Origin: Kiritimatiellia bacterium
GTDB lineage: Bacteria; Verrucomicrobiota; Kiritimatiellia; CAIVKH01
Direction of reading: 5' to 3'
Length of the DNA: 64,000 bases
NCBI GenBank assembly: GCA_027493775.1
Contig: JAOSKE010000003.1
Coordinates: 269,761 to 333,760, forward strand
Position 1 is the stretch's first letter. Every line of letters starts with the position of its first letter. Positions 21,241-63,515 of this stretch are shown here, piece after piece. The position numbers and the translations under genes are program-made. The notes under the pieces were generated by a model. That model searched no databases. It was not told the DNA's origin and saw only the letters and a list, made by a program, of their open reading frames with translations.

Positions 21241-21242
21241 GC

Positions 21243-33499: not shown

Positions 33500-33540
33500 G
33501 TTGGGTGGTTTGAGGATTTTAAAGGTCTAAAGAGGAAGCT

Positions 33541-33639
33541 ATGGGTTCCGTAAAGAAGAAGCGACGCAAGAAAATGGCAAAGCACAAACGCCGTAAACGT
33601 TTGCGTCTCTCCCGCCACAAAAAGCGTAGCTGGGGTTAA
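33541..33639 (+). CDS. bS22/mS38-like (AURKAIP1/COX24 domain) basic small protein, 32 aa; absent from the ORF track
   Basis: [32 protein letters not shown] with a GAGGAAG RBS. Confidence 0.88.
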
Positions 33640-33668
33640 CCCCCGCTTCCACCCATCGCCGAAATTTC

Positions 33669-35866: not shown

Positions 35867-35995
35867 TTTAGTGCGCTGCAAAATTGCCCCCGCCGCGGGT
35901 TTTGCAGCACTCATCAGTACTTGCGCAAAGGCATTGAACTCCGGAAGCCGCGACGCGCAGAGTCGTCGCGGCGCCGGAAGTGGGAAATCCGGCCT

Positions 35996-36971: not shown

Positions 36972-37106
36972 GCGATACCTCCTCTTCAAAATACAGGGTT
37001 AAACGCTAGCACATCAGCCGCATTTTAGACAAGCACCGACACATCGCGAAAAATTGCCGATCGAGAGCGCTTTGCGCAATCCCTCTCGTTGCAGTACATT
37101 CACGAA

Positions 37107-37903: not shown

Positions 37904-37941
37904 ACGAAGAGCGCAGCGGACTGAAACGCCGGTTATGCGAT

Positions 37942-37980
37942 AAAAAAATGGGACGGATCACTCTGATCCGCCCCATCTTT
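37942..37980. terminator. Probable bidirectional intrinsic terminator between the convergent S2P gene and asd
   Basis: A-run, ATGGGACGGATCA-CTC-TGATCCGCCCCAT stem, then TTT. Confidence 0.65.
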
Positions 37981-38009
37981 GATAACGTTCGCCGCGATTG
38001 CCTGCGCAA

Positions 38010-39014: not shown

Positions 39015-39062
39015 AGCTCGCTACTCTCTTCTCAATCAGCGGCGCACAGCCGCCATACAGGA

Positions 39063-40520: not shown

Positions 40521-43500
40521 TTACGGAGCAGACATTTCGACAGTGACTCGGAACGCTGCGCTATTGGTCGTCGTTCCAGCGTTCAACTGTAGAGGAGTGC
40601 CGGTTCCTTCTGTTCCGTTGCCCACTTGCGTCCAAGTCTGCGACCCGCGCAGGCTTGGGATAGTCCACAAGCGATAGACGCGGCCGATGACAGTGGGCAC
40701 GGTTGCGCCAGCGCCGGGAACTCTGATGACTTCGAAGTAGCTATTCGCGCCGTTCGGCGGAACGGGATCCGTGCCAGCGATGAATTCTTCGATGTTCGGA
40801 GAACCGTCACCGTCGGAGTCCAGCTCGTCTCCGGGGTAGCTACCCACATCGCCCCAGTTTGCGACGATCCAGTCCTCTTGTTCCTGTGAGTAACCGCTGC
40901 CACCGCCGTCAATGGTCTGGCAATCGTTCAGCAGTCCGGGCGTTGCGAGGCGCCAGTCGTCAGTAGGGCCGGGCGTCCAGGCGAAATCGGACGCGGTATT
41001 TCCCGTGCCGCACACTTGCAGCGAGTATCCGACCGGCGTCCCGGTGTTAGTTTCACGCAAGCCGATGTCTGTGGAGGTAAGCCCTTGCGCGGGGCCGTTG
41101 ACAGCCGTTATCACCCCTTCATAGCTGATGAACTGAAGGACGACGCTGCCGCCGTACACCAGCGCAAGTCCGTCAGGTCCGTTGAACAGTGCGCCATTGG
41201 CACCGGCATCCGGCGCGAACCAGAGGGCGCCAAACCCTTGTCCTTCGTCCGGAATGACTCCCGACAGAGCAATGTTGCTATAGACAACACTCCCCGAGTT
41301 ATAGTCATAGAGATAGACATTGTATCCGTTCAGGTCTGTGCCCGCCGGACCAGCGATTTCGAAGCCCTCGTCCACGTCCGCGCCCTGATTGTCATAATGG
41401 ATTTCGTTGATCCACAGGTTTGTCTGAATGGGCGCGGGCGGTGATGTTACGGTGATGCTGATCTGCTCGGAATCAGCGCCATCTTTATCCGACGCGTAGA
41501 AGGATACAGTGTACACACCCGCCGGGCCGGGGTTGGCCCACGAGAAGTAACCGCTTGCATTGGTTGAGCCGAAGGTCGAACCCACAGGCGCATTCGAGAC
41601 GGTGAGGGTGACCGGATCGCCATCCGTCGGCGTCGCAGTAACCGCGAAGCCCAATGGAACACCCGCCGCAGCGGACTTGTTGCCGATGAGATTCAACACG
41701 GGCGGCACGGGGCCTGCCGAGCTCACAGTTCCAAACACGACGACGTCGTCTATTTTGAGGATGCCTCCACCTGACGTGGCGCGTGAACCGTTCGTCCAGC
41801 CCTGAATCATGACGGTGATGGCTCCTGTCTGATTGTCCACGCCCGTCACGGCGTTGCTCACAACCACCAGCGAGGAATCCGGCGCGTCCATAGCATTTGT
41901 CGCTAGGCCGCCGCCCACATCGTAGCCGATGCCCGACGGCCCGGCGGCTGTGGCGTAGGCGCGGAATGCGATTCCGGTGATTGAGATCTCGTATCCGGGC
42001 TGCGGGGTGATCGTGAAGAAGAAGTTCTTGGCTTCCGCCTGACTGGTCTTATTCCATCCGGCGGTTTCCTCGATATAAGGCATGTTCGGGAAGTAGCTCC
42101 CCGTTGTGACGTTTGTCTCAATCGTGCCGGAGGACAGCGCCATGTCCGAAACGGAGATATTCGCGTCCTTTGTCGAAACAGCCAAAGAACCGTCGGTGAA
42201 ACGGAAGGCGGCGATGCCTTCCGGCGTCTCCGGCGGCGTATCATTATCATTGATGGTCAGCGTGAAGGTGGACGGAGTCACAGCGCCAGCACCCGTGACA
42301 TTCGCCAGGGTCAGCGTGATGGTCTCCGGCCCCTCAACTTCCGCGTCATCATTAATGGTGATCGTGAACGTCGCCGAGGTCGTCGCGCCGTTCATCGCGA
42401 AGTTCGTGGTGTTAATCGTGTAGTCATTACCCGCGCCAAGCGTGGCCGTGCCGCCCAGTGTAACACTGCCGCTGACATTGCCGCTGGGAAGAGTCTTCAC
42501 GACCGTGACGGTGTAGGTACCCGCGTCTTCCCCTGCGCTCGCGGACGCCACGGCGAAGTGGACGTTTGTGCCGGGAGGGGCGGCTCGCCGCCAAGCGAAT
42601 AGACGGTGAAATCGTCAACGTTAGCTCGGGCGCTGGCAGGTCCGCTGGTTTTGCGGACACGGAATCGAATGTCGCCCGCCTGGTTGATATTTGTCGCGTA
42701 AAGCGTGAGATCCGTGCTTTCAACGGCAACGGTTCCCGCGTCCAGCCAAGAGGAGCCGGAATCGAGACTGTATTCGAGCGTAAGGGCGCCATCTCCATCG
42801 GAGCCATATTTCGCATAGAGAAAACTAACCACGCCCACACCACCCGAAATGTCTTGCTGCATTTCAATGGTCGCGACGTCATTGGTGCGAAGACGGGCGG
42901 ACTTGCTACCGTTCTTGCGATCCCCCGCAAGTGTTCCAATAACCGCTTCGTCGAACGTCCACACGACATTGCTCAGCGTCACATTGCCGGCAGCATAGCT
43001 TGCTTTGCTGCCATCCTCAAACCCCGTATAATAGACGACCTCGCCCTGCTCTGGAATTTCGGCATCGTTATCCGTTATGGTAATGACTGTTTGATCCGGC
43101 GAAGCAATACCTGCGCCGATTACATTGGCGAGATCCAGGGTGATGGTTTCGCTGCTCTCCTCATCCACGTCATCAATGAGCGTGACCGTGAAGGTCGCCG
43201 ATGTCGTCGCGCCATTCATGACAAAGTTAGTGGTGTCAATGGTGTAGTCCGTCCCCAGCGTGGCCGTTCCGCCAAGCGTAACACTGCCGCTGACATTGCC
43301 GCTGGGAAGAGTCTTCACAACAGTAACAGAGACAGAGCCGGCGTCCTCATTGACGGTCTGTGAGGCGACGGTGAAATGCACGTTGGTAGGCGGCGGACCG
43401 GATGAGCCAATGGAGCCAGAGAGTTCGACATTATCTATGCGCCATGATCCGTTCGCTGCTTCGGCGTTATATCCGTAAATGCGGAATGTTACCGTGGAAA

Positions 43501-43951
43501 GGCCGGCAAAACTCCCGCCGAGCGCCACAGATTGACTTCGAGTATCCGTGTTATCGGGCACATTTCCGGTCGCAATATCGGCCGTATATCCATCCAAGCT
43601 GCTGCGCACGGACCAGTCAGCAATGCCGGTACCGGAACGGCGCTCCTGGAAGGCCAGATCCGTGAGCGTCACGGCATAGCCGCTATCGGCAGTAATAGTG
43701 AATTCAAAATAGTCGTTTTCATCCAGCGCACCCAGCGACCATTGGGTCGCAGCGAATGTGCCTGAGCCAGCACTTGCCGTAACTCCTGTGCCACGGCTCA
43801 TGTCGCTGAACGCCGCGTTCGCCGGTTGTGAATCCACGGGGTACGTCGCCTCACTCCCTGCTGCGCCCGTGAATGTGTAGATTCCCAGTTGGTCTGCCCA
43901 ACTGTGCCCAGCAATGAGAAGGGCCATTAGACCCGCGATCTTCATTTTCAT
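40521..43951 (-). CDS. Secreted multidomain surface protein (~1,140 aa): jelly-roll domains, two Calx-beta domains, Ig-like, lamin-tail-like, acidic DSDGDG motif and C-terminal domain; apparent frameshift near 42570
   Basis: Signal peptide MKMKIAGLMALLIAGHSWA; Calx-beta (VHFTVASQTVNEDAG...TITDND); LWINEIHYDN; DSDGDGSPNIEEFIAGTDP. Confidence 0.82.
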
Positions 43952-44045: not shown

Positions 44046-44868
44046 TCAGTACACCAAACGCACTCGATAGATTCCGATGGCGTCGAGTGCGCCGTTGGTA
44101 ACGATGGTGGAAGTTCTATCTCCGACGGCGGTGACGACACTGTTGACGTTGGTAAATACGTTCGGCTTGGTGAGGTCGCCGGCTGCGAATTCGAGTTGAT
44201 AGGATTTGCCGGGTACGGAGTCCCATTGGACATGGAGGTCGCCATTGGACTGTGGAAGCACACGCACCATGGCAAGGTAGGAATCTTCGTCGGTGAGATC
44301 GGTGCCTGCGCGATATTCATCTCCGTCACTAACTCCATCTCCATCAGTATCTCGGTTTTGCGGGTCGGAGCCAAGACTTTTTTCCCACGAATTGTTGAGA
44401 CCGTCTCCGTCGTCGTCGGCGGCATCGAGCGGCGAGGCGGTGCTGCTAACATTGAGATAAAAAATGGTGAAGTTTTGTTCGGGGGTGAAGACTTGCGAAT
44501 CGGTATAAAACGAGGCTTGTTCCAGCGTGGGGGCGTTGAAGACGCGGGCGAATATTTTCTGGGTTGGGCGGGGCGTGAGCGCGGCGCTGAAGCGGCCCGA
44601 CCATGGAGGGATGGTTCCGCACGCCGTTCCCGATTTTGGTTGTAAAAACGACGGGGTTGTTCGCATGTGGACGGCCATCCACGCCGGGTGGATAGACCTG
44701 CCCGTTTTCCTGAAGGTATTGGACAAGCGCCCCGGACGGCACGGCCTGTCCGAATTCGTTATAGATGGGCTGCATACTCGCGGACTGCAGCGGCGCAACC
44801 TGCGCCGCTGCCCAATTCGCGGTGGCGAACAGGAGCGCGGGAATCCAGATTGTTCGTGTTATTTTCAT
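44046..44868 (-). CDS. Secreted protein with acidic DxDGDG repeats and a beta-rich C-terminal domain; apparent frameshift near 44625
   Basis: Signal peptide MKITRTIWIPALLFATANWAAA; DDDGDGLNNSWE..DTDGDGVSDGDEYRAGTD; ends IYRVRLVY. ATG overlaps the stop of the giant gene. Confidence 0.75.
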
Positions 44869-47800
44869 GGCGTGGTCATCTGTCCATTCGGATTGGATAT
44901 TCCGCCCGACACCTGATAGCTGATTCCCGCGCCGGATCCATTGAATTCGTACACTTTGAAGAAGTAGGCCGTGGAGGCCGTGAGTCCGGTGACCGTGATG
45001 CTGTCATACGTATTCGGAGAGTAGGACTGCACACTTCCGACAACGAAGTTGTTTGAGCCAATTTGGCTGCCAGCGCCGAACACACTGTTTGCCGTGTAGG
45101 TAACGCCATTTTCAGGAGCTTGCGATGGGGCGGCGCCCTGACGAGCCACAATGATCCGGCCCTGACCATTGCCGTTTGTCCAGCCGATGGTCATCTGGGT
45201 TGTGCCCACTGAAGGGAAGGTGATGCTGTGCGCTTGGGTCTGAGGCGCGTTTGTTGGCGTGAAAACAATGTTCGTCGTGGAGTACAGGCTGATTCCACCG
45301 CTGTTCACGGCCCTCATCCGCCAGTAATTGGTTGTGAGGCTATTGAGATTTGTGACGGCAAAGGTGACGCCGTTGCCGGTCGCCCGCGCCTGATAGCCGG
45401 GAACAAAGGAGCCGAACGAAGAATCGGTGGAGACATCAAGGAGATAGTTTGTTGCTCCCATCGTGGCGATCCAGTTTGCCTGGAAGCTGTCGGACTGTAT
45501 GGCGGTGGCGGACAGAATATCTGGCGCGTTGGGCACGGTCCAGAACGTGGCATCATCCGAGTAGGCAATGCCGTTGTTGTTGCTGGCCCAGGCACGGAAG
45601 TAAATGAGCTTGCCGGCGGGCATGCCACTGCGCGCGTGCGAGAACACGCCGGTTGCGACGCCGCCTTCAGCCATGCTGTTGCCGGTCGGGATGGGGGTTG
45701 CTCCCCAAACCGTTCCGCGCGAAGTGATGGCGCTGCCGCCATTGGTTTCAATCGTTGCGCCAAGTGTCGCGCCGGATGCGGAAATGGCGGTTGCGGTCGG
45801 CAGGATGAGCGTGGGGAATCCGCTGCTGCTGCGACGGCCCAATGCGCCGTTACCTTGGAAGTCGCTCTGGCTCCACGACGTGGAGTTGGTGGCGCGAATC
45901 CAGTAGTAGTAATCCGCATCCACGACCGCTGTGGTATCCGTATAAACGTTAATTCCCGCGGCTACGGGTCCCGATGTGGCTCGCCGAGCCGGAGTTGTCC
46001 GAAGTGTAGCGGTATATCCCGTAGCCGGTTTCTCCCTGCACATCGCTCCATTCGATTTCCACGCGATTGGTAAAGGCGTTGTAGCTCGCGATCACGTTGT
46101 CCACGGTCGAGAGCTTGCGATAGCCGTAATCCCCGCTGCCAAATGCGCTATCACCTGCGCAATTGGCGGCCTTGATCCAGTAGTAGTAGCGCTGGCCGGG
46201 CGTGGCGCTGGCGTCGGTGTGAGTGGTGACATTTGCAGCTTTTGTCGCCAGATACGTGGCGGTTCCGGGATCATTGCTGGTATTGCGCCAGACTTCATAG
46301 CTGGACTCGCCACTGACATCATTCCAAGTGACAGTGATGTGAAGTTCGGATGCTCCATCCGACGCCGTTGCGTTCGGCGCGGGGGGATCACGTTGGTGCA
46401 ATATCCATCGGTGGCGAAGCTGCCAGTTCCAAAACGGCTTTCGCCCCTGCTGTTTTCCGCGTAGAGCCGATAGTAATACAGCGTTCCCCTGGACAGCCCG
46501 CTTACGAGGTCTGTGAGTTGGATGGCGATGTTTGTCGCCGCCAAGTTGGTGAAGCCGACGGAGAATCCGTAGTTTGTGGTAGGGCCATACCGGAACTCTG
46601 CAGACGTCGGCAGGCCGTTTGGCGTCACGGAGCCGCGGAGAATTACGCTGTTTTCCGTGATATCCGCCGGGGACTGAAGAGTGACAATCGGCGGCGCGGG
46701 GAAGTAGTTGGTGAGGCGCAGGACCGGCGGGGTGTACGGCAGCGGCATCGTCCAAAGCACTGAAGAGGCCAGGAAAGGCGTCCAGACCACGAGCGAGTCG
46801 TCCGCCTCAATCACAAAGTTATCCGCCAAGGCGTTTCCTGGAATAAACCTATACGTGCCGTTGGTGAGCACATAGATGCGCGCTTTGGAGCTCGCTATAC
46901 GAGCCGCCGCCACGGGCCAACACGCGAATTTCGTCGGCAAACCGCCAGAGACCCAGCGGCGCCCGCGTGAGGACGTTATTCAGCCCCGTTTCGGACATGC
47001 GTGTGGGACGTGGCAGATTTAGCGCAAGAACATTGTTTTTGTTCGGCTCGATGACGATGCCGTCCGGCTGATCGCTCGCCGGCACACGGCCCACCACCAG
47101 ATAATTGGTCGGGGCGCTTGAGATCGGAAGCAAAACGTCAAAACCTCTGTTGGGGTAAGGCAACGCCTGGGTGTTTGCCAAGCCCCCGCCGATTTCATAC
47201 TGCCAGCGGCCATCCGACGCAAGCCACCACGCGTTCGAGTCTGCCTCGGCGTCTGCCCTTGGCGTGTACACATACACCGAAGACGAGTCGGTCATGTCAT
47301 TGCCTGCCGGCATACGATTGGTTCCGAGGAAGTCGGCCAGCGTATTTTCAAAGGGCTGCATTCCCATGCCGATGAAGTTATGGCCGTTCGTCAACACAGT
47401 CTTGAGGGCCACCACAACCTGTGTTGCCGCGCTGCCCTGGCGCGCCCATGTTGGAATCCACGCATTGGCCGCAGCGATGCGGTAATAACGCATCCACTTA
47501 TTCGGCAAATCAATCGGCGCCACGCGATAGTTTGTAGTTCCCACGTCATAGCCGCCGACATCCACAAACTTCGTTCCCTGCACCGTCGCAGCCAGCTTCC
47601 ACTTCAGGTCAATGTTTATATAGTAGCCGGTGCCATCCGCATAAATGACATCGTAGTAGCTGTTGGAGCTTCCCTCCCAATACAACTCAGCTTGCGAGTT
47701 CACGTTGGCAAAAGCCTGCGTAATCGTGATCTGGCCCAGCATCACGGTTTGCACGCCGGAGATCGGCCCGAGGTTGCCCGCGCGGTCGCGCCCGGCAATG

Positions 47801-50800
47801 GCGACGCGATATTCCGAACCCATCGCCAGGCCATCAATCGTGAGCGCTGACGTTGTGTTGGTCGCAAGGGCAAGGAACATGCCCGCGTCGAAATACAGAT
47901 CGTTCGTCGTCGGATCGCCCGAATCCTGCGTGTAGTACACACGGTACGTATCCCACGGCGAAAGATGAGCGCCGCCGCCATCCGAGAGCGGGGTCCAGTT
48001 CAGGTCAATTTCCGAGGTGTCATCAATCTGACCGGGAGATGCCGCGAAATTCACCACTTTCACCGGCGGCGTGAAGTCCAGATACAGCACGGTGCTGGTC
48101 ACTGCGCCCATCGCGCCATCGTTCGGACGATCATCGTCCGCGTCAATCGCATACAACCAATTTGTGATGATGCCTTCGGTCATATTGGTCAGTGTCACGG
48201 CACTCGTCAGGCCGACATTCACGCCCTCCACCATCGTTGTCGGCGCGATGTTGTTTGTGACCAGCCGGAACGTCGCCACACCGGAGGCGTCATGCACCGA
48301 GCTGGTATCCCAAGAGTAGGTGACCACCGGATTGTTCGTCCAATACACTGCGGTGCTGACAAAGTTGCTCGCGGCGCTTGGGCCGACCGTGTCGTCGTCC
48401 ACCACAAGGATCAAATTCGTCCCATCCGCAAAGAACGGGCTGTCGAACACCTCACCGAAACAGGCGCCGAGGCTGCGGGCAGACCAGAAGACCGAATAGT
48501 ATCCGGTCATAACATTCGCGTATGGGATCGCGGTCAAGTAGTCGTTGGTGACATAAACATCAGCGCCGCCATCGGAAACATTTGTCCAAAGGTCGGCAAT
48601 CACCGTGGCGTCATTCGGGTTGTGAATCTTGAAGCCCGGCTCATAGGGGTCGTCAATCGCGACACCGATCGGATGATGGATGGTCATGGCAAGCGACCAG
48701 CCGCCCGCCCGCAACTCGGCATCCGTCAGGGTGGCCATCGGCGCAGGCGTCGCGTTGACCAACAGGTTGCTCGCCACCGGGTCATCGCCATTGCCCGCTG
48801 CAACACTGATCAAGAAGTTCAGATTCGTCTGCATCCGATCTCCGACACGGTCGTTGTCCGCGTCCGCCACAGTGACGCGCACGGTATAAATGCCGCAATC
48901 CGCAATTCCCGCCAGATTCATTGGCGCCGTCCAGATGCTCTCCCAATCCTTCGCATCGCCCTCGTTCACGGGCGCATTGGCGAAGCCACCCGACGCAACA
49001 ACGTATCCGAGCGAATCAATCACGGCGTATTGCGGCGGCGCGGAGGTGAAGGCAATGCCGCTTGTCACATCGCGCACGCGGCCGGAGATAACGACCGAGA
49101 AGAGATCGGCGGCGTTGGTAATTGAAATGCCGCCATTGATGGTGAAGAAGCCGATCTGCGGGATGTCATAATCGTCATCCACAACCGTGAAGGGCACGTT
49201 CGTCATCCGCTCGGAGGAGTCAAACGGACGATCTGCATCGGCATCCGCCGCCCAGAGAATCGCCGTGTGGATACCCAGTTGAATGGTGTAGTAGTCGCCA
49301 CCCGGGATCGTATTGGAAATACTGTTCGCAGCCTTTGAACCGTGCGCAAACGCGGTCGTGAAGAAGTTCGAAACCACCACGCCCGCATTGGTGTTCAGCA
49401 CCAGGTAGCGAGGCGCTGCAACATTGCTGGCCGACAGGCCGCTTCCGAGGTCCTGCAACATCCCCGCAATGTTCCAACGTCCGAGCAACAGGTCTTCATC
49501 CGTAATGACACCACCCGCCGCGCAGAGGTCGGGGAAGCTGAAGCTGAATTGCTTCAGGTCATACACAATGTCGTCATCGCCGACCCAATTTTCCTTGTCG
49601 CCGACGTAGTAAAGGATTGTTTCGCGGGTTCCCGAAATGGAGAGGATGTTCGTGTTGATGATCACGTTGTTCAGATCGCCCTGAGCCGTGCCCACCGCCA
49701 CTGCAGTATAGCCATCCGCCAATCCGGGCGGCAGTGCAGTTGTGTGCGAGTCCGTCGCATCCACGTCCCATACACCGTTCGTGCGGTCATTGAGCGCGTA
49801 GATGAAGTTCGGATTCGCGTCCGGACCTTGGTAGGCAAGAATCTGTTCACCTTCGATATTCGGGGCAAAATTGCCGTTGGTCGCGACGATTCGGCCGTGA
49901 CTGATGACAGGGTTGTTGGTCGCAATCCAGCGCACCACCGTTCCTGCTCCCACACAGTTTGTTGCGCGCCAGGTGAGTGTGCCTTCCATGTTCCTGAACT
50001 TGTTCTGGCTGGCCATCCAGCCATTGTCCGTGAATTTGATTTCCGTTCCCGTCGGAATATCCACCAACGCAACCCACGCAAACGAGTCATAGTTGCTGCC
50101 GCCGCCAAAGCCGCCTTTGGTCAGGGTGTTCATCGCAATGATTGCGATGTCGCCAGCAATCAGATTCGTACGGGACGGATCCGAGCATTCCCCACCACTG
50201 CCACAATCGGAGCCCGTGCCGCCACCCACCTCGACACTTAGAAAATTCGGCGGTTCGGTATCATCATCAATGACCAAAAATCTATTGGTGCCCGGATTGA
50301 TCAGTGCGCTGTCGCTTTCCGCGCCGTAGCACAATCCTTCAGTTTGCGCGGACCAGACGATTGAAAAACGACCCGTTGTGATCAGGTTCGTGTCCGCCGC
50401 AAGCATCGGGTAGTTCGTTGCATAGTACGTCGCACCGCTCTTGACCAGATTACTCCAGGCAATTGTTCCGCTCCCATACACATTGCTGCCGTCCGCGCCC
50501 AGGACCTTGAAGCTCGGCGCATTGGGGCCGTTCGTAATAATGTTCTCCGAAGGATGCGTGAAGGCCACCGCGACGCGCCAACCGCCGGTCGCAATCATCT
50601 GATCCGTCAGCGTCACCGTCGTCGCGGAGGTATTGTTCACGAGCAGATTTTCCGCCGTCGGAGGGTCTCCCTCTTCGCCGCCCGTGGTAATGACCAGCGC
50701 CACGACCTCGTCCGATGCGGCATCATTCATCCGGTCGTTATCCGCATCCGCCGCGAACACGCGCACGGTGTAGCTGTAACCGCAGGTGAGGTCTAAACCG

Positions 50801-53800
50801 GAGAACGCGGCGCTCACCCCTATCGGCGTGAGCTTCCCAGCGCCCTCGGCGCCGCCCGACAGCGTGTTGCTCGCCAAAATCGTCACGCCATCCACATCAT
50901 AGAACAGTAGATACGGCGGACTGCTTGTGAACCCGATGCCGCTTCCCGCGTCGTGCAGCAAGCCCGTCACGGTGAAGCCGGACATCGCGGTCGCCACATC
51001 AATCGTTGTGGACAGCCCATCAACCGCAAAAGCGCTCGGCGTCGGCGGCAGATCATCGTCGTCCACCACCATGAAGAGGTTCGTGCCGTCCGCAATCGCG
51101 CCGCGATCAATAATCATCGCTACGCAGGATCCCTGATTGCTCGCGGACCACACCACATAGTGCAGGCCGGTTTGGATAACACTGTATGACGCTGCCGGAA
51201 GATTGTTGTTCGTGAAATAATAGGTGTTGCCCACATGTACCCCATTCGTCCACGGCATTTCGGCAATCACATTGCCCACCGCGTTGGTCACACGGAATGA
51301 CGGCGAGGAGGCATTGGTAAAGACCCCCACCGGATGCGACAGATTGAACGCCAAGCTCCAGCCGCCCGTGGCAATCGTAGAGTCCAGAACCTGCACGTAG
51401 GGCGACGCGACACTGCCATTCACGAGCAGATTGCTCGCAATCGGATAATCCGCAGGGCCGCCCACGCCGGTCGTACGAATCACCAGCACCGCCTGCGTAA
51501 TGGACATCTGGTCATTCGGACGATCCAAATCCGCGTCCGCCGCGAACACGCGCACCGTGTAATCCTCGCCGCAGTTCAACACCCCGGCATAGACCATGCC
51601 TGTCGCAGCATTTGCCGCCCCCGCATAAAGTCTGTTGCTCTGAACAACCGCGCCGACGCTGTCCAGCAGGACAAAGTGCGTCGTTCCGTCATACAACACG
51701 CCCGACGCATCCGTGAGCATCCCCGTGATGACCATGCTGCCAGAGCCTAGGTCAAAATTCGTCGTTCCGCCAGCCAAGAAGAAAGCGGACGCAAGCGGCG
51801 CATTCGTGTCGTCGTCAATGACCGGGAAGATCAGCAGGTTGGTCGATCCGAGCCGGTCCATATCGCCGCGATCATCATCCGCATCTGTGACAAAGACCAA
51901 GGTCGTGTAGGTGCCCAGCGCGACATAATTTGTGCTCGCGGCAGCAGGTGCAAGCACCGTTGCCGGCATGGAGGTGGTTGCGCCGGCATTCGGGAACGGC
52001 GTGACAAAATCATCGGTAACGACCTGTTGTCCGAGTGGATTCAACGTGATGAAGTACGGCGCGAACGCATTGCTGACGGCAAGGCCGCTATCCACGTCAT
52101 GCACCATGCTTGTGATCGTGTATCCGCCCCACGCGATGTCGCCATCCGTCAGGACGAGATCGCTGGACGCCGAGGTAAGCCGCACATCGTCAATGCGGAA
52201 TTCGACGGTGGACGAGGATGTAAAACGGATATACAGGTTCGTGCCCGCCAGGCTGTCGGGCACACTGTTTGTGCGATAGTGCCACACAGCGGTTCCCGCG
52301 CCCGTCGGCAGGCTGACCGCGCCCAACGAAACCCACGTGGTTCCGTTGGTGCTGCCTTCGAGCGCCATCGTGCTTCCGGACTCGGCCGTCGTGTTCTTTC
52401 GAATACCGTAATACAGCTTCATGCCGGACATGCCGGACGAATCAATGCCGGCAATCATGAAGTACTCATTGACGGCGTTAATCATCACATTCATTGAACC
52501 AGACGCGCTCGCATAGTCGCTCGGTCCACTCGGATTTGTTGTTCGCACGTCCGCTGTGCCGGTCATGGTGAACGAAACGTTGTCAAAACGATTGTTGCTC
52601 TCGTGTGTTGCAATGGAATCGCCGCTGCTGCCCGCCGTTCCCATGGTCTCAACAAAAATCTCGTTTTCCGCGCCGCCTGCGCCAACTCCGTTAATATCCG
52701 TCATCCCAATGACTGGCGGAGTCGCGTCATCGTCCTTCACCACCAGAAAACCGTATTGCTGGTTTGTGATCCCCGTCGTGTCGCCAATGCGGTCGTCGTC
52801 GGCATCAGACATGGTCACCGAAATGCGGTTGGTCTCAACCCGTCAACGGTGTTGGTCATCATCCGCGTGATTTCTGTATTGCTGAAGGGAGTGGCCCACG
52901 TCCAGACGTTCGTCGCGCGAGCATTTGTGGTCTGTGCAAAGGTGGAACTCAACGTCGCATCAAAGTTTGCGACGTTGCTGATCACGATGCCATCCAGCGT
53001 GAAGTTCATATTGGTTGCTGGATTGGTGGTGCCCCGATTAATGCCCGAGTCGTCACGCGCACCGAGCCAGAAGTGCAAGGGGTTTCCCGCGCTCACCGAA
53101 ACCAACTGACCGTCGGTCGCGCTGTAGACCCAGTTGTTCGATCCTCCGCTACCCGTCAGATTTGTGCCGCCAATTGAAATTTGCATGGCGCGCAAGGCGC
53201 CACCGTTCACGACCGGGGCATGGATCGTTGCCAACGCGGGCGGGGTCCACGTCGTCGTCAATGACGGTAAAGACGAAGTTGGACGTGACCGCGTTGCCCG
53301 TCAGGTCCACCGCGCTGACGGTCGCCGTATAGATGCCCAGAACCACATTCGCCTGCGGCACGGGGCCGAAGGTTCCCGCGAGCGCGGATGGCGCGGTCGT
53401 GCCGTTCGCCGGCGCGGTGGAGAATTTATTTGAGGCAATCGTCACGCCGACGCTGTTGCGGATAACGAAGTACGGTGTTGCGGGGCCATTGGAAACGCCC
53501 GCGCCGACATCGGACACCATGCCGGTCACCGAAAAGCCCACGCGGATTTGCGCATCGGTATTGGTCCCGCCATCCAGATTGAACCCGAAGAGACTCGGCG
53601 CAACGCCGTCCTTTGTCGTCACGCTGCCGGTCGTGGAATTATCACTCACACAGTTTGGCGTCGTCGCGCGAACGCGATAGTAATACGTGACGGCGGATTC
53701 CAGGCCCGTGACTGACACGCTCGTCCCGGCCACCGAACGATCTTCATAGCCACTCACATAGCTGGATCCCGAATTCGTCCAAGTGACGTCATCAATCGAC

Positions 53801-56800
53801 AGACGCTCCGACCCGCTATTGGTGATCATGATGGTGAACGAGCCGGGGAAGTTCAGATTTTGCACGACCGCCGTCTGGATCGCGCTGCCGTAGGTGATGT
53901 TGGTCGCCACCTTGGTTCCGTTGACAAAAATATCAAAGGTATGCGCTTCCCCGCTGCCGAACGCGCGCTGATGTGTCACGCGAAGTTCGCTCACACCACC
54001 GGTAATAGACTGAGATACCAAGTATGCGCCGCTTGCGTTCTGGAGCGTAAGCGCGTCGCCATCAATCGTCTGATCCGTGCGTGCCTTTTCGGCCGTCCAC
54101 ACAATCCCATTCGCATTGGTCCAGTCGCGGGTCAAGTAGCTGCTGACCGTTCCTCCGCCGATGATGCCCCGACCGAAAGGTTCGACGCCATAATTGCCTA
54201 CGCCGCCGAAGGTGGGCGAAATGGAGACGTCCACGCCATACCCCGTCGCGCCGACAAGCGGCGACCAGTGCAAGGTGAAGTCCGTGGTATTGGTCGGATT
54301 CACATACAGACCCGTCACCACCGAGCTGAAGCAGGCGGCGGTGAAGTTGCTGACATCGCCGTAGGATATGCCGAGCGCGTTCTGCGCGTAGGCGCGTACA
54401 AAGTAGGTTTGGCCGGGCACAAGGCCGGTCAGACTGCTGGCATAGATGCCAAGGCCTGTTCCGTCCGAAGTGGCACTGTCGGCAATGGTCGGCGTTCCGT
54501 TTGTCGTCCACACTACGCCGCGATTGGTCACCGTCAGCCCACCATCGCTCATGACATCGCCGCCGGCGGAGGCCGTGGTTTCCAGAATGGAGGAGATCGG
54601 ACGCGCCAACACGGTCGGCAAATGGCGGTCCACCAAATCCGCCCAGGATTTGGCCACACGTATTTCGTCGAAATACACCCGGCCTATCGTCCCAACATCC
54701 GCGCCGCCGATCAGCATGATGCCGTCAATCATCGCCGGAGCTCGTCGCAGTTGCGGTCGCAGCCCACGTCACCGGCTCCACCATCGGCACGCTCTCCGTG
54801 CGGTGATAGGCCATCGCATAAATCTTCCCCGCATCGAGATCATATTTGCCGATCAACAGGTAGGTGTTGTTGGTGTTCACGGAACGACCATAAATGTCGT
54901 AGGCCGAAAACACCCGACCGGCGCCATAGGTATCAATACCGAGCGAGTAATCGTGCCCGCCGTCCGAAATTTTTCCGACAAAGCCCGTTTCCGAGCTACC
55001 GCTCAGAAAACTAATGCCCGCAAATTTGTTCGGCCCTTCAAACTCGTAGCCGACATACGCCGCGATATAAACCGCGCCCGTTGAAATCGGCGCAAAGAAG
55101 CGCTGCACACGGCTCGTCGTGCTGATGCCCGGATCGTCCATCTTGATGATGTTCGCCGCATTCGTCGGATACGAATCCACCGTCGGGAAGGAAATCTCCG
55201 CGTGATTGTTCGATAGAACCGTCCATGTCCCCGCAGAATTCGTCCACGCCGTCGTCCACCCCTGCCCACCATTGCCCGACGGCAACAACAACGAAAGGCT
55301 GTTCGTGTACGCGACCTGATCAACGATTTCCTCCGGCCGATACAGCGGCATGGTCACGTTGCCGAGGGGCGTGCGCGTCGCGGTGTAGTTGCCGTTGAGC
55401 GTGTACGCCGCATAATAATTGGTCGAACCCTGCGCCACGATGTGCTCTAGCGCGCCCGCCGAGGGGCCGATATAAATCACACGCGCGCTGCCAATCACAT
55501 CATCCACGCTGTACGGAACGCCCTGCGTCGGGTCCACCGCGATCGCCTCATCATCGTGCAAGATCAGCGTCTGCACCCCGGCCTGCGGCGTCCAACCCAG
55601 ACGCACCATTTCCTTGCCGTCCGCAATCACCGATCCGCCGGCCACCGGCGGAATATTCGTCACCGTCACGGTAATCTTCGCATGTTGCGGCGAGTTGGAT
55701 GCGGTGCCGCTGGTGACGATGAGCCCGCCGGTGTGAGTGCCGACCGCGAGGTCCGTCACATCCAACGACAAGGTATGCGCCTGACCGATGCCCGCGCCGA
55801 GGGTGCCCAATGTCGGTGAAACAGAAATCCAGGCCGCATTCGTCGCAACGTCATAAGACAGCACACCGAGGCCGATATTCGTCACGGCAAACGAATCCAT
55901 CACCGGGCTGCTTCCACGCATCACCGAAACCGTGAACGCGGTCGGCGTGAGACCGATCCCCGGCGTGCCGCTGGAGGGGATGATATCTGACCATTTGGTC
56001 GCAATACGGACTTCATCGAAGGCAACCACGCCGGGATAGTTGTTATCAAAACCGCCCGTCACCAACTCGATGCCGTCCACGTAGGTGCGGTCACTCGCCG
56101 CCGTCGCCGTCGCATCCCAGACCCCCGGTTCAGCCTCGGGAACCACGTCCGTGCGGTAGTACGCCTTTGTCGCCAACTCGCGCGTCGAAAAGTTATAGCG
56201 CCCGAAGATCACATATACATTGCCCGTGTTGGAAGAGAACGAGTTGATGTTGTAGCTGGAGCTTGCGGGTCCGCCGCCGTCAAAACTGTCAAGTCCAAGG
56301 AGGTTCCAGTCCCCTATTTCACCAATGAACGCGCGCTCCACGCCGTTCGACAGCAGACGAATGCCCGTGTATTTCCCCTGGTCGCCATATTGCACGGCCA
56401 TGATGTACGAAAAATACAACACGCCGCTCGTTACCGGAGAGAAGTCGCGCCGGGCCTTCATCTCCGTGTTATTCACGGTATTCGTCACCAAAACGCGCTG
56501 CGCCGCAATCGGCGGGTAGTTCGAGTTAACATACAGATTCGGCGTCGGCCCGTTTGAAGAAACGGTGAAATTCCCCGCCCCCACCGACCACGCGCCGCTC
56601 CAGCCCTGACCGCCGTTCAGCCCGTTCAGCGAGACACCGTTTGTGTATCCGAATTGCTCCACGTGCTCGATCGGTCCATACGAAGCCATCGAGACCGTTG
56701 CCGTCACCCCCGGCGAGTAGTGGTCATTGTTGATCGCGTAGAACACATAAACATCCATGCTGCCCGGCGGCACCACATGATCGAGATAAGCGCCGCTGCC

Positions 56801-59800
56801 GCTGTACACCACCTTCGCGCCGCCAAACGTGTCGCCGACGCTATAGGGCTGACCCTGCGAAGGCGGCGAAGTCGGTCCGTCGTTTTCGCGGTGAACAACC
56901 ATCACGTTGAAGCCCGCCGGCCGCGTCCACTGTACCCGCACCAGCTCTTTGCCATCCGCCGTCGCGCTCAACGCCGTCGAATCAGGGATGTTGGTCAGAA
57001 CCAACGTCACATTAACATTCACGGCATTCGATGCGGTGGGGCCGCCATCCACGGTAATCGTTCCACTGTTTGTTCCCGCGGAAAGTCCGCCGATGTTAAA
57101 CGAAATCGTCTCCTGCTGGCCGGCGGTCTCCGCCAGTTGCGCCGAGACCGGCGAAACACTCAGCCAGGAGACATTCGTCGTGATCGTGTAATCCAGGCGG
57201 CCCCGCCCGACGTTCGTGACGCCGAAACTCGCACTGGCCGGCGCCGTACCGACCATCGTCGTCACCGTGATGCTCGGCGGGGCTCACATAGGCGCCCGCC
57301 AAGACGCCCACACCCTGGACATCAAACGTATAGGGCGACTTGGCCGCTACACTGTTTGTAAAGACCAGCTTCGCCGTTCGCGTTCCTGCTGCATTCGGAT
57401 CAAAGCGGACCTGGAACGTTGTGGTGCCCCCGGCGGGCACAGAAGCCGCAGGCTGACTGACCACAATGAAATCCGCCACATGGGTCCCCTGCGTCACCAC
57501 GTTGTTCAGACTCAAGGAGGAGTTGCCGGCGTTCGTAATGGTGTAGGTTCGTACCACGTTAGACACATTCACGCCAACCGAGCCAAAGTCCGTGCCCTTC
57601 GCAAACGTTGGCGAGGTGTCGCCATTGGCAATCAGCGCGAGGTTGGTTCCCAACACCGCGACGTCCGGCGCCACCAAGACCGTCGTCACCGAACCGGTCG
57701 GCGAATAGCCGCTGTCGCAATATTCACCTTGCGCGACGACGCGGAAGTAATACGTCACCAACGCGGTCAATCCGGTGACAGAAGCACTCGTCCCACTGAC
57801 CGGCCGGGCTTCATACCCCGGCACAAAGGCATCTCCGCCGCCGTAGGACGTCCAACTGAAGTCATCAATATAAATCGTCACCGCAGTGCGATAGATCTGT
57901 ATCTTGTTCACCGCCGGATTGCTGATCGCAATGGAAATATTGGTTATGGATGTGCCGACGCTGAACGGAGAGCCCGGAGCGGCGCTAAAGGTTGCGCCGT
58001 CGTTCGTCGAGATGTTGATCTGAAACGCGCCGGACGCCGTACTCGCGCTCGCATAAAACGAAATGTCTTTGACGCCATTGCTCAAGGTCGGCGTAATCAC
58101 CATAGCGCCAGTCTGGCTGCGAAGCTGCAGTGAATAGGATCCGCTGACCTTGCCAGCCGTGCCGCGAATCACGCCATTCGCCTGACCCGACCACTCTCCC
58201 GTTGCGAGCGAGTAATTCGTGGTGGAGGTGTAGCCGGTAGGAAGCCCCGTTTCAAAGTCTTCCGTATCCGTAACGCCTTGTCCGACAAACTGCGCGTTTG
58301 TGCTGACATCCAACAGGTAATTCGTCGCGCCGGACGCGGAAGACCAACTGGCCGTAAAGTCAGTCATATTGGTTGCACTGGCCCAGATGGACGCGGGCGG
58401 CTGTGGACAGGTTGTGGCGCTCCCACTCGCAAAGCTGGCCGTGCGATAATTTTCCGCGCCAGCGCCGCCGTTGAAGTTATACACGCGAACGTAATACTTC
58501 GTTCCGGCAGTCAGGCCACTTAGGTTAACAGAAGTTCCACTGCCCTTATAGACCACATAGCCACTGCCCAGCGCGGTTCCACTGCCATACGTGGGGCTCG
58601 CGGTGTAGGTCGAGCCATCTGTCGGATTCCCGCTCAAATCGCTGCTCGCTCGGACAACAACAAGGACCTGTGTGCTCACTCCGGTCCAGTTGATGGTCAT
58701 GGAGGTTTCCGTGACACTCGTGAACGCCTGCAGCGTCGGCGCAGCCCCAGGCTCCGCGGCCATCGTGCTCGCGGACGCCGTCACGCCGGTGGAATAGTAG
58801 TTATTGTTAACGGAATAGAACTTGTAATCGTAGCCCCGATCCCCCGTCAGACCGGAGTCCGTCGCCGAGGTGCCCGACCCCTTATAGACCACTACGCCGC
58901 TGCCAATGCTCCCGTTCACGGAGTAGGAAGTGCCCTGCGACGGCTCCGTCCACGACTGCGACGTCAGTTTCCGCACAATCATCACGTCGTGGCTCTGCGC
59001 ATTTTTGCTCCACGACAGATCGATCATCGTCACCGGATTGCCGTTGTTTCGCGTCGCATTCGGGCTGGTGGGGCTATTGATCGGGTTCACCGTGAAGAAG
59101 TTCGTCGCGAAGAGGCTGCCGCCCGTGGTGCCCTCCCAACCCACGTCGGCGTAATAGACACACCCGCCGGTATTATCAAACCGGCCCGCATAGTACCATG
59201 TGCCCGTGGAGATGAAGACGTGCTCGTTCGTCTTGGAAATCCAGACGCGGTTGTTCACACCATCCATGCGCGACCAATCGGCACTGCGCCAGGTCCAACT
59301 GGTTCCATCTTGCGATGTGCCCACTCCATATTCCACCGTCCAGCCCGTCGTGTCGCGCGCGAGCGCAAATTCGTATTTCCCGGTCAGCGAATCGCCGAGG
59401 AAATAGGTGGCCAGCGGATTGCCTTGATTATAGAGCGCATGCCATTCGGTCGAACAGCCGGACGACAGCGTCGTGCCGTCGCCCGTGGCGCCAAACGCCG
59501 TCTCCACATTGACGCCATTTCGCGCCTTCACCTCAAAATAGTACGTTGTGGAAGACGCCAAGCCCGTCGCCGTCTTCGTGCCCCACGTGCTCTTGGTCGC
59601 CCAATAAGCCGAGGCGCCCCACGTGCCATCGCTTTGCAGATACTGGTTGTCGCTCGTTCGGCGAATGGCGAACTCCGTCGAACTCGGGTTGCTATTCTCA
59701 TTGATCGTCACATCTAGCGAGGACGCCGTCGCGTTGTTCACCGTCGGCGCGCTCGGTGTATTCGCCAGCGTCCACGTGTTCGATTCGTTGCCCAGCGCCG

Positions 59801-60794
59801 TTCCCACGCTGTTCTGCGCATAGGCGCGGAAGTAGTATCGCGTGTTCACCGAAAGGCTGCTGATCGTTTGAGTGAAGGAGCCCGTCCCGCTTCCGATTGC
59901 CGTCTTGTTGTCGGCAATGGTGACACCGGCTGTCGTTTTGTACACCACGCCGCGATTCGTCACCGACGCCCCGCCATCGCTCGTGACATTTCCGCCCAGC
60001 CTCATGCTCGTCGTGTTCGTCTCCGTCGCAGCCGCCGTCTGCACCGTCGCCGTCGTCGCCGCCGCATCAACCGACCCGCCGATGTCCAAGCCATATCCCG
60101 AGGTGTTGTAGAAACCCCAGCCGCCCGTTGACGTCCGCCCGCTCGCGTAGTAGCGAAGCGTCACGGTGTTCGTCGCGTCGACACCCTGCAGTGCCGTCAC
60201 GCCGGAAAAATCCCATGCCCGGTTCAGCAAGGTGCTGACATTTGAGGAGCCAATCAGCGTGAATGAGCTTCCGTTGAGACTATACGCCCACTGATCCGCC
60301 ACGCCCGGAGTAGCATAGAAGCTCGACGTGCCATTAAACTGCGCCACAATTCCGGTAACGGACAGCGTGTACCCCGACGAGGCCGAAAGCGTGACCTGAA
60401 AATAGTCGTTGTTCGCCGTGGAAATACCATTATTTTGAAAACCGACGGTTCTGAACGAATTCACGCCCGCGCTCGCGCCCGCCCCGCTTCCACGAGTAAT
60501 CACAGCGGAGGCATCCATGTTTGCATTGTACACGGAAGCCGTCCACGTCGCCACGCTGCTGGCTCCGCTAAAGTTCCATCCGGCAATTTGCGCGGCAAGA
60601 CCTGACGGCACAGCGACCCCGAAAAATATCGTCGCAAAAATGAAAAACTTCCAAGGGTTGGAAGTCTTGCGGCAAACGAGTTCCAAGGGTTGGAAGTTTT
60701 GCTCTGAGGGGTTACGCTGTTTCGGGATAGAACTCGACCGTGACCGCCCACGAGCAGTCAGCCCCCTTCCAAGTCTGACCTCCTGTACACTCAT
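44865..60794 (-). CDS. Giant secreted adhesin-like protein (~5,300 aa) with FN3, choice-of-anchor-D-like, BACON-like and acidic cadherin-like repeats; seven apparent frameshifts
   Basis: ORFs 57096..60794, 54725..57265, 53149..54732, 52815..53261, 46849..52818, 46092..46940, 45949..46755 (3' part) and 44865..46043 overlap and join in mid-domain. Only one signal-like hydrophobic stretch was seen (FFIFATIFFGVAVPSGLAAQ). Confidence 0.8.
60649..60695. repeat. Pair of TTCCAA-N3-TTGGAA palindromes, 32-bp spacing (locus C), inside the 5' end of the giant ORF
   Basis: ttccaagggttggaa at 60649 and at 60681. Confidence 0.9.
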
Positions 60795-61893
60795 CCCTAT
60801 TGGCCCTAACTCCTCTGCGACGCCTTCCCGTTCGTCGCACAGCTACCCACCAACTCCTCATCCATCCATTAACTATTACACTTACACTCGAGGCCGAGTT
60901 AAGTCTCCCGATTAATTTTACACATTCTTTTTCGCTCAGCACTCCTCAGAAAATCAGCTTTAAGCAAGATTCAGAACATGCAAAGTCGGGCCACCCGTGA
61001 TCCAACTTATCTTTCAGGTTCCATTCTGTGACAACAGCCCGTTCAAGCGCAAGAAAAAAAATTAGTGCTGAATGCTCTTCAATTCGTCTTTGTGGTAGGG
61101 ATCGCCCCACTGTAGCTGCCCCTGTCCCGCCATAGGCTTCGGCGACGGCGGACGCGCTTCTGTAGCCGCCCGCGTTGAGGGCGGTGTATAAACCAATCCC
61201 CTCACGAATTTATTAAAACCTCTGATGGTAGGGCCGGACCGCCCTCCATAGGCGGGCAAGCTGAGGCTGGCCGGAATGTTCACGATGAACCCAAACGTAC
61301 CTGAATTGGGATATTGCCCTTCGGTCGCAACCCCCACATCCCCAGCGGCGCGCCCAGCGGTCGCGCCCTACCAACCACAACACAATCGTGGGGAACGCGA
61401 CAAATCCCTTCCGCGCCCTTCCGCGTTTTCTGTGGTTAAAAAACCCTTCATTCCCTGCACTACATCTTTTGTGCCTTTTGTGCTTTTTGTGGTTAGAATT
61501 AAACCCCGCGGTCAACGCCCGCGGCTACAGCATTGAGAGCATTTAGTTCGCCGTAATCTCTGTAGCCGCCCGTGCTGTAGCCGCCCGCGTTGAGGGCGGT
61601 GGATAAACCAATCCCCTCACGAATTTATTAAAACCTCTGATGGTAGGGCCGGACCGCCCTCCATAGGCGGGCAAGCTGAGGCTGGCCGGAATGTTCACGA
61701 TGAACCCAAACGTACCTGAATTGGGATATTGCCCTTCGGTCGCAACCCCCACATCCCCAGCGGCGCGCCCAGCGGTCGCGCCCTACCAACCACAACACAA
61801 TCGTGGGGAACGCGACAAATCCCTTCCGCGCCCTTCCGCGTTTTCTGTGGTTAAAAAACCCTTCATTCCCTGCACTACATCTTTTGTGCCTTT

Positions 61894-63378: not shown

Positions 63379-63515
63379 TTTTGTGCTTTTTTGTGGTTAG
63401 AATTAAACCCCGCGGTCAACGCCCGCGGCTACAGCATTGAGAGCATTTAGTTCGCCGTAATCTCTGTAGCCGCCCGTGCTGTAGCCGCCCGCGTTGAGGG
63501 CGGTCTTAGCCCCGC

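Follow-up and report, generated by a model that had tools for sequence, protein, structure and literature searches.

Single-base assembly errors split an intact 15.9-kb gene for a putative giant surface protein in a Kiritimatiellia bacterium

Eight consecutive open frames on the minus strand of a 64,000-nucleotide stretch of a Kiritimatiellia genome (hereafter the window) make up one intact gene of 15.9 kb with a product of about 5,300 residues, and we are close to certain that the seven frameshifts between them are artefactual. At each of the seven, the consensus of the five-contig assembly is wrong by one base, and the frame changes have no biological meaning. As an account of the whole, an intact gene with artefactual shifts that encodes an exported, beta-modular surface protein is the best explanation that we have, and we hold it to be very probable.

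Results

One frame across seven junctions

From 60794 down to 44865, the open frames succeed one another in frames 2, 1, 0, 2, 0, 2, 0 and 2 (end modulo 3), with neighbors overlapping by 28–715 nt (Table 1). The original prediction, made from the letters alone, had proposed a single gene of about 15.9 kb and about 5,300 residues from eight overlapping segments, and the stop-to-stop frames, each overlapping the next, confirm that description. We compared the window with Logan short-read contigs from eight independent public metagenome DNA runs (several studies, 2018–2024) and one metatranscriptome (cDNA); these are assembled contigs rather than raw reads, and minority variants are invisible in them. 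At each junction, exactly one base separates the window from all eight DNA runs and from the cDNA run, and the short-read contigs show no further indels against the window within the gene. The seven overlap windows total only 1,401 nt of the 15.9 kb, and every one of them contains exactly one of these differences (7/7). The predicted junctions, at about 57280, 54735, 53245, 52840, 46890, 46375 and 45965, are only a few bases away from them, and the true stops between segments that a polished sequence might have revealed do not appear in the short-read contigs. Once the seven differences are applied, the gene reads through as a single open frame of 5,308 codons, free of internal stops, giving an acidic product of about 556 kDa (pI 4.5) with junction-spanning peptides such as ...AYVSPPSITVTT... 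and ...GGSYSEPKARIY....

Table 1. Features of the gene and its surroundings, in window coordinates
Feature	Position	Strand	Details
Whole gene, one coding sequence after read-through	44865..60794	-	5,308 codons
ORF segment 1	57096-60842	-	stop-to-stop
ORF segment 2	54725-57283	-	stop-to-stop
ORF segment 3	53149-54768	-	stop-to-stop
ORF segment 4	52815-53300	-	stop-to-stop
ORF segment 5	46849-52842	-	stop-to-stop
ORF segment 6	46092-46979	-	stop-to-stop
ORF segment 7	45949-46806	-	stop-to-stop
ORF segment 8	44865-46091	-	stop-to-stop
Junction 1	57279		window one base more than all short-read contigs; run of G
Junction 2	54739		window one base more than all short-read contigs; context GGAGCTC
Junction 3	53242		window one base more than all short-read contigs; run of G
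Junction 4	52832..52833		window one base fewer than all short-read contigs
Junction 5	46889		window one base more than all short-read contigs; context GGAGCTC
Junction 6	46380		window one base fewer than all short-read contigs; run of six G
Junction 7	45966		window one base more than all short-read contigs; run of G
Doublet of palindrome TTCCAAGGGTTGGAAG	60644..60700	.	within or just before 5' end of coding frame
Sole strongly hydrophobic segment	60588..60650	-	residues 49-69, KFFIFATIFFGVAVPSGLAAQ; hydropathy scan (stretch 49-71)
Choice-of-anchor D domain	57351..57665	-	residues 1044-1148; NF012200, 59.6 bits vs cut-off 45
Block A: BACON_2, FN3-like unit, lectin-like beta domain	55979..57287	-	residues 1170-1605
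Block B: second BACON and lectin-like copy	54631..55951	-	residues 1615-2054; self-comparison
Central repeated beta-sandwich units	48073..53595	-	about 1,840 aa; self-comparison
Conserved 231-aa domain	49498..50190	-	AF2 pLDDT 85.5, pTM 0.87
376-aa C module, ends ...LPYTPP	46692..47820	-	residues 4325-4700; 446.8 bits to family profile
C-terminal extension, FN3-type domains, ends ...NPNGQMTTP	44868..46691	-	~600 aa; fn3 34.1 bits and repeats

Intact copies exist elsewhere. In a protein homology search made with a 4,908-aa piece of the read-through, the public protein P0001 (5,228 aa, intact) is reported at 100% identity, with two residue differences seen against the window copy; apart from these, the two differ only by the assembly indels. 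P0002–P0004 follow at 70–82% identity and 5,222–5,327 aa, and seven related genomes carry orthologous stop-free open frames of 4,181–6,073 aa, six of them of 5,027–6,073 aa. The expectation that automated annotation would fragment the gene thus holds for this assembly, but the gene was not hidden, as the intact call and its orthologues were already public. The gene is also transcribed: contigs of the metatranscriptome, in which carry-over of DNA is possible, span about 45148–58626 with the frame intact.

Origin of the frame changes

The same kind of difference is found well away from the gene. Short-read contigs reveal 10 one-base differences in positions 1–20000 of the window and 7 in 20001–40000 (17 in 40 kb), a density of 0.43 per kb vs 0.44 per kb in the gene, and pst, Mla, cyclase and peptidase genes are among those affected. 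The frameshifts that the original prediction had presented as a feature of the gene are thereby reduced to assembly indels of the kind and density seen in the first 40 kb. Of 26 sites, 16 adjoin homopolymers of at least 3 bases, vs 23.5% of random positions, and 11 adjoin runs of at least 4 bases (random, 7.2%); the pattern suggests that long reads were the source of the assembly. The upstream 20 kb (C3:333001-353000) contains a single shared indel outside repeats; we therefore dropped the assumption of a uniform error rate and regard the error density as regional.

That unevenness might be taken to favor a true pseudogene, with a strain that accumulated seven real frameshifts and has ceased to produce the protein; all seven shifts are indeed present in the window as supplied, and loss or phase variation is frequent among surface-protein genes. 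Several observations nevertheless make this very unlikely. The contigs of two of the runs, X2 and X4, have only 0–3 substitutions relative to the window over 16–17 kb, yet lack all seven indels, and seven indels against three substitutions is not a mutational pattern. Neither a nonsense substitution nor a larger deletion accompanies the shifts, their sites are enriched at homopolymers, and housekeeping genes are hit by the same one-base differences at equal density.

Even less credible, to the point of being negligible in our assessment, is control of the giant protein's expression by programmed ribosomal frameshifting or by phase variation through homopolymer slippage. G tracts do drive phase-varied surface proteins in some bacteria, and G runs of 3–6 bases adjoin four of the seven sites. 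However, recoding is not needed, because the frame is already continuous in the DNA contigs of eight runs and in the cDNA contigs; a recoded gene would have its shift in the DNA of the species and depend on it for the product, and this is not what we find. Moreover, every site is in one state across all runs, the indels go in both directions and occur in mixed contexts, including GGAGCTC and GGTCTC, and identical events occur in unrelated genes. Finally, an operon of eight separate genes with overlapping ends, for which one could cite the in-frame ATG, GTG or TTG within every segment, can be dismissed for practical purposes: the read-through is free of stops, same-species contigs and orthologues have a continuous single frame, the public protein is intact, internal signal peptides are absent, and the junctions cut through domains and through a duplicated block. 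What stands is one gene interrupted by assembly errors.

N-terminus and predicted export

The coding sequence starts either at the ATG at 60794 or at an in-frame TTG at 60686. Because residues 49–71 are the only strongly hydrophobic stretch in the protein, an internal signal peptide is absent, which bears out another element of the prediction. By its sequence, this stretch is a predicted Sec-type signal peptide or signal anchor, and export would probably proceed via Sec through this single N-terminal signal. The palindrome near the 5' end of the frame is a genome-wide repeat with about 70 BLAST matches in the genome and is not specific to the gene; the element is also translated at the N-termini of P0002, P0016 and P0020.

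Modular architecture

The product is built almost wholly of beta-sandwich modules. Most of the units named in the original prediction could be matched to models: the choice-of-anchor-D-like unit scores above the NF012200 cut-off, and its region also matches the HYDIN/VesB Ig-like (PF22544, 27.1 bits) and DUF1573 models; the FN3-like units are supported by fn3 and HYDIN/VesB Ig-like matches in Pfam; and the two BACON-like plus lectin-like blocks find their counterpart in a BACON_2 match and a block duplicated in self-comparison. The BACON_2 match of block A (PF19190) has 44.8 bits vs a gathering score of 25, the model matching in two stretches, and blocks A and B are 36–42% identical in windowed self-comparison. 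The second BACON match, at segment residues 477–540, has 19.6 bits and is under the 25-bit cut-off of PF13004. The two blocks are probably glycan binding. The C-terminal extension is common to the orthologous group, as judged from orthologue C-termini.

The predicted acidic repeats were recovered in the central region as seven DADxDR and seven (V/I)xDDD..P motifs, located at the ends of units. No Pfam model matches the DADxDR units at E <= 5, and a sequence search of the PDB with segments of 1,997 and 852 aa has no match at E <= 0.1. Cadherins bind calcium through the motifs DxNDNxP and A.D.D.G.N, and the end-of-domain motifs (V/I)xDDDxxxP and A.DADxDR..D resemble these at the level of motifs only; neither Cadherin (PF00028) nor Calx-beta models match the DADxDR units at E <= 5, and membership of the cadherin repeats is unsupported. 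From the motifs, we infer that the acidic DADxDR/xxDDD units may form a long stalk with linkers similar to those of the cadherin type that bind Ca2+.

Within the central region, the 231-aa domain is the best conserved part of the family, at about 65% identity vs about 50% elsewhere. It has no Pfam model at E <= 5 and no Foldseek match in the PDB at E <= 1e-3 (best E 0.098), and a single-sequence scan finds it also in Bacteroidota, at 29–41% identity, and in one MAG labelled Rhizobium. The C module, modelled by AF2 with pLDDT 88 and pTM 0.83, is an all-beta string of beta-sandwiches, is not barrel-like, and likewise has no Foldseek match in the PDB at E <= 1e-3; the best partial likeness of both models is to lamin-tail/Ig and FN3 sandwiches. 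A search of a 151-genome sample of the phylum detected the C module in this bacterial class only. Among the 150 best of 258 family representatives, about 137 have it at their C-terminus, whereas in our protein it is internal. The profile match to this module of ~370 aa, whose conserved tail in the family is ...YTPPxKNINP, places the protein in this unnamed Kiritimatiellia C-module family. Of the additional Pfam matches at E <= 5, one to a phage coat was judged spurious and a CBM6-like one was below threshold.

Discussion

Among the giant surface proteins of PVC bacteria, we consider this one ordinary, and it leaves current understanding unchanged. Proteins of 5,000–10,000 aa have already been reported from PVC phyla (bioRxiv 10.1101/2023.11.21.568195; PMC12057145), and a continuous frame of 5,308 codons exceeds the 5,000 codons that define such giants in PVC-lineage genomes, its relatives being named Kiritimatiellia. 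Like them, the protein has at least 5,000 aa, comes from a Verrucomicrobiota-related lineage, is extracellular by prediction, combines Ig/FN3 with carbohydrate-binding modules and is prone to fragmentation in assemblies. The work of West-Roberts et al. (bioRxiv 10.1101/2023.11.21.568195; PMC12057145) is mainly concerned with proteins of Omnitrophota that exceed 30,000 aa and contain many transmembrane helices as well as domains that degrade cell walls; unlike those, our protein has a single hydrophobic segment, and no catalytic domain was recognised in it. Closest to it are entries from Kiritimatiellia MAGs, such as P0006 (5,913 aa) and P0010 (4,991 aa), and the same-species protein P0001, which at 46–100% identity belong to the same family and share its architecture of FN3, HYDIN/VesB Ig, choice-of-anchor D, BACON, the 231-aa domain and the C module. 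The named relatives are annotated as 'choice-of-anchor D domain-containing protein [Kiritimatiellia bacterium]', and a literature search on 'choice-of-anchor D' and Kiritimatiellia giant adhesins turned up no study of the family's function.

Substrates of type I secretion systems (T1SS) lack an N-terminal Sec-type signal. The protein differs from T1SS adhesins of the SiiE/LapA type in having a predicted signal of this kind and in lacking RTX repeats and a C-terminal T1SS signal, and we rejected membership of the T1SS/RTX giant adhesins on account of the N-terminal hydrophobic signal and the lack of a HemolysinCabind/RTX match. It does resemble SiiE, LapA and MpIBP (PMC5466336, PMC7493085) in its tandem beta-sandwiches of hundreds of kDa, acidic junction motifs and ligand-binding modules toward one end. 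No ABC, MFP or TolC-like genes adjoin the gene; its neighbors are TSP3 and Calx-beta proteins, a tRNA, LeuB, Asd and a second giant gene. Pfam and NCBIfam give no match to autotransporter (type V) models, the C module has no barrel-like match, and the last segment has no T9SS sorting domain (PF18962/TIGR04183); in the protein as a whole, we identified no feature for anchoring or outer-membrane translocation.

In function, the protein is somewhat more probably adhesin-like than not, its most likely role being to act in flocs and biofilms as an adhesin of the cell surface or as a scaffold that captures glycans. Since the repeats have no Pfam model and the folds no match among solved structures, this reading draws on the presence of BACON, FN3 and choice-of-anchor D domains and on the likeness of motifs. 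The earlier suggestion of a giant adhesin or S-layer-like scaffold stays a candidate reading of the domain content; no SLH or other S-layer anchoring domain is matched in Pfam or NCBIfam. A nonadhesive role, whether as a cellulosome-like scaffold for polysaccharide degradation or as a contact weapon against other cells, is the less likely option, although such roles have been proposed for other giant PVC proteins (PMC12057145; bioRxiv 10.1101/2023.11.21.568195). The BACON domains and the weak CBM6-like signal (E 0.026, below cut-off) point to glycans, and some family members carry PF03372 (endonuclease/exonuclease/phosphatase), PF13091 (PLD-like) or PF03781 (sulfatase-modifying-factor-type) domains. 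In this protein, however, Pfam, NCBIfam and PDB sequence searches detect no catalytic, toxin, cohesin/dockerin or membrane-attack domain, much as the original prediction had stated for catalytic and toxin domains, and the models of the 231-aa domain and the C module lack an enzyme-like fold.

For an adhesin-like surface protein, the C module would probably serve in retention at, or assembly on, the cell surface. A bolder proposal, which we regard as tentative and on balance improbable, is that it represents an undescribed sorting, anchoring or assembly signal that mounts the giant proteins of Kiritimatiellia on the surface. If this were true, the orthologous group of our gene would be a variant whose signal has turned internal, and the C module together with the equally unmatched 231-aa domain would define a new surface-display system.

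The main value of the case lies in the caution that it urges over split-gene calls in this genome. Over most of the 96 kb that we checked, single-base indels occur about once per 2 kb, so that genes of this genome that look 'frameshifted', 'split' or 'dead' need a check against short reads before they are interpreted. The gene itself is one more example of the extracellular giant proteins of PVC bacteria, and the class-restricted C module and the 231-aa domain are reasonable targets for structure and localisation work. The source organism is common in sludge and bioreactors: at least 10 studies have metagenomes from wastewater, sludge or bioreactors in which it recurs, and there the protein could contribute to the cohesion of flocs or biofilms.

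The reading frame of the giant gene

From 60794 to 44865 the giant gene runs through eight successive minus-strand frames (frame numbers 2,1,0,2,0,2,0,2), neighbouring ones overlapping by 28 to 715 nt per pair. As the original prediction held, these segments join mid-domain, and their translations run on inside recognisable domains. Once the seven one-base differences at the junctions are read through, a single frame of 5,308 codons is obtained without a stop, and this, together with a near-identical intact public protein, supports the proposal that the segments form one giant gene. The polishing suggested as a check for true stops, performed here against short-read contigs, likewise gave a continuous frame with no stops between segments. 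The public protein, called intact at 5,228 aa from a contig of 17,925 bp, starts at an internal GTG codon and is otherwise essentially identical to our read-through; the gene is also present with its frame intact in metatranscriptomic cDNA contigs. The eight segments are one gene, and its frame is intact in nature.

Features of the giant gene, its product and its surroundings (window positions, or place within the protein)
Feature	Position	Strand	Remarks
Open frame 1	57096-60842	-	stop-to-stop
Open frame 2	54725-57283	-	stop-to-stop
Open frame 3	53149-54768	-	stop-to-stop
Open frame 4	52815-53300	-	stop-to-stop
Open frame 5	46849-52842	-	stop-to-stop
Open frame 6	46092-46979	-	stop-to-stop
Open frame 7	45949-46806	-	stop-to-stop
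Open frame 8	44865-46091	-	stop-to-stop
One-base indel sites elsewhere in the window	310, 2079, 4957, 7107, 7672, 9675, 13942, 15830, 17832, 19304, 26453, 26568, 26886, 27234, 35085, 36266, 37835, 44596, 61941		against eight short-read assemblies
FN3 / purple-acid-phosphatase-N-type Ig units	N-terminal-most domains		
Choice-of-anchor D domain	after FN3/Ig units		59.6 bits, cut-off 45
Two ~440-aa blocks			each BACON domain, FN3-like unit and lectin-like beta domain; 36-42% mutual identity
Repeated beta units, ~1,840 residues	after BACON/lectin blocks		seven DADxDR and seven (V/I)xDDD..P motifs
231-aa domain	within the ~1,840-residue repeat region		best conserved part of the family
C module, 376 aa	followed by ~600 residues of FN3 domains to the C-terminus		
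Secreted bacterial TSP3-repeat protein	44046-44868		directly downstream of giant gene; split by indel at 44596
Calx-beta protein	40521-43951		two overlapping frames, junction near 42500

Origin of the frameshifts

The window is found almost word for word in more than 20 public metagenome runs (bioreactors, sludge, wastewater), and we compared it with the Logan short-read contigs, assembled contigs rather than raw reads, from eight DNA runs and a single metatranscriptome. Every run compared shows a difference of exactly one base between contigs and window at each of 57279, 54739, 53242, 52832/3, 46889, 46380 and 45966, exactly one site inside each of the seven frame-overlap windows, and no further indels were found inside the giant gene. 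Runs X2 and X4 provide a contig with only three substitutions over 16-17 kb that lacks all seven indels; other runs contain strains with 40-110 substitutions and the seven differences are identical. At the junctions, the window is the outlier.

The same contigs share ten indel sites with one another against the window in 1-20000 and seven in 20001-40000, giving 0.43 indels per kb in 1-40000 versus 0.44 in the giant gene, and those elsewhere affect pst, a PHP-domain gene, the UbiA region, a CHASE2 cyclase, an M48 peptidase, MlaD, a CsgG-like gene and an M50 peptidase. Against eight independent short-read assemblies, the assembly, a 3.2-Mb genome in only five contigs, deviates by about one single-base indel in every 2 kb, housekeeping genes included. 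Homopolymers of at least three bases adjoin 16 of the 26 indel sites (23.5% of random positions), and runs of at least four bases 11 of them (7.2%). Such homopolymer-enriched, gene-independent indels are the signature of uncorrected long-read consensus errors. Given the homopolymer enrichment and the equal density in ordinary genes, and with all seven missing from the short-read contigs, the frameshifts are an artefact and no real feature of the gene. Of the window's three GGAGCTC sites, two (46889, 54739) have an indel at the same motif position, a pattern suggestive of a systematic, motif-dependent base-calling error for which DNA methylation at GAGCTC is a possible cause; site 52832 lies in the context GGTCTC. 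The error density is regional: the adjoining upstream 20 kb (contig C3:333001-353000) are almost clean, with only one shared indel outside repeats. Between 27235 and 35084, the comparison with the short-read contigs gave no indel difference.

Repeats and strain polymorphism

In runs X3 and X12 the contigs lack the ISL3-family transposase gene (27133-28170) and join 26920 to 28251 with 47 other letters between; this is an insertion polymorphism between strains. Two copies of a 300-nt unit, 100% identical and 415 nt apart, lie at 61160-61874, and a 117-nt unit at 63388-63504 has a second copy at a distance of 1.9 kb. GC-rich inverted repeats flank both units, contig depths there are 4-7 times those of the flanks, and the units are joined differently between runs, with variable short inserts; they are REP/MITE-like elements present in multiple copies, and strains differ in how these are arranged. 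The palindrome TTCCAAGGGTTGGAAG, which has about 70, often paired, copies genome-wide, occurs as a doublet at 60644-60700, either within the 5' end of the giant gene or immediately ahead of it. In three related giant proteins (P0002, P0016, P0020) this element forms part of the annotated N-terminus, where it reads ...FQPLE...SNPWK... in translation.

Domain architecture

The product, of about 556 kDa and pI 4.5, is rich in T, G, A, S, V and N, and would start at ATG 60794 or at an in-frame TTG at 60686. Its only strongly hydrophobic stretch is N-terminal (residues 49-71), in line with the original prediction, in which no internal signal peptide was seen. Domain searches and repeat comparison agree with the FN3-like, choice-of-anchor-D-like, BACON plus lectin-like and acidic-repeat units originally proposed, and domain-model searches found no catalytic or toxin domain, as in that prediction, nor any RTX, autotransporter, T9SS or SLH features. 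The DADxDR/(V/I)xDDD repeat units matched no Pfam model, even at E <= 5.

AlphaFold2 confidently predicts all-beta folds for the 231-aa domain (pLDDT 85.5, pTM 0.87) and the C module (pLDDT 88.0, pTM 0.83); neither matches a solved structure at E <= 1e-3, and the modelled C module does not resemble a membrane barrel. The 231-aa domain is widespread, lacks a Pfam model and occurs also in Bacteroidota (Algibacter, Polaribacter, Pelobium, Chitinophagaceae) and in a MAG labelled Rhizobium, at 29-41% identity (matches L010-L014). At E <= 1e-30, the C-module profile hits 258 cluster representatives in a collection of 1.84 billion proteins, and in about 137 of the best 150 of these the module is the C-terminal end, commonly ending ...YTPPxKNINP. 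Within the phylum, it is found in 14 of 151 sampled genomes, all 14 from the window's class; the open frames that carry it range from about 150 to 12,833 aa, full-length matches falling mostly in frames above 2,000 aa. A third C-module gene of the same genome (contig C2:218798-219838) has a frame of only 539 aa, against 2,122-2,162 aa in three same-genus genomes, and is probably fragmented by a similar assembly error.

Relatives and neighbouring genes

Seven related genomes of the same genus, family or class contain orthologous open frames without internal stops, 5,027-6,073 aa long in six and 4,181 aa in G004. The closest database proteins (70-82% identity) are 5,222-5,327 aa long, and named relatives are annotated 'choice-of-anchor D domain-containing protein [Kiritimatiellia bacterium]'. 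Directly upstream lies a second giant gene, a 4,734-aa open frame (C3:347480-333279) whose interval begins about 480 nt inside the window's end and whose product ends ...YYTPPGKAFDP; a single assembly indel near C3:348299 separates it from its 5' part, orthologues having 7,334-7,386 aa; the tandem order is kept in at least four related genomes. With the downstream TSP3 and Calx-beta genes, the giant genes form a cluster for acidic, probably Ca2+-binding extracellular proteins. Beyond the Calx-beta gene follow a tRNA, LeuB and Asd, and the remainder of the window holds housekeeping genes.

Proposed function and significance

A surface adhesin or glycan-capturing scaffold in flocs is a plausible, and the most likely, role of the giant protein. 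It would be exported by Sec; ligand binding would fall to the BACON/lectin blocks, possibly also to the 231-aa domain, and retention or assembly to the C module. To judge from the likeness of their motifs to those of cadherins and RTX adhesins (PMC7493085), the acidic DADxDR/xxDDD junctions may be Ca2+-binding linkers that stiffen a long stalk. We propose that it works like the giant adhesins of type I secretion systems (T1SS), yet it falls outside that group.

Proteins of 5,000-10,000 aa have been reported as frequent in PVC phyla, with a warning that assemblies fragment them (bioRxiv 10.1101/2023.11.21.568195; PMC12057145). Our protein is a new member of these known PVC giants, an intact copy being already public, and nothing in it is even mildly new except the class-restricted C-terminal module. 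Because the assembly carries about one indel per 2 kb even in housekeeping genes, other genes of this genome called 'split' or 'dead' need rechecking.
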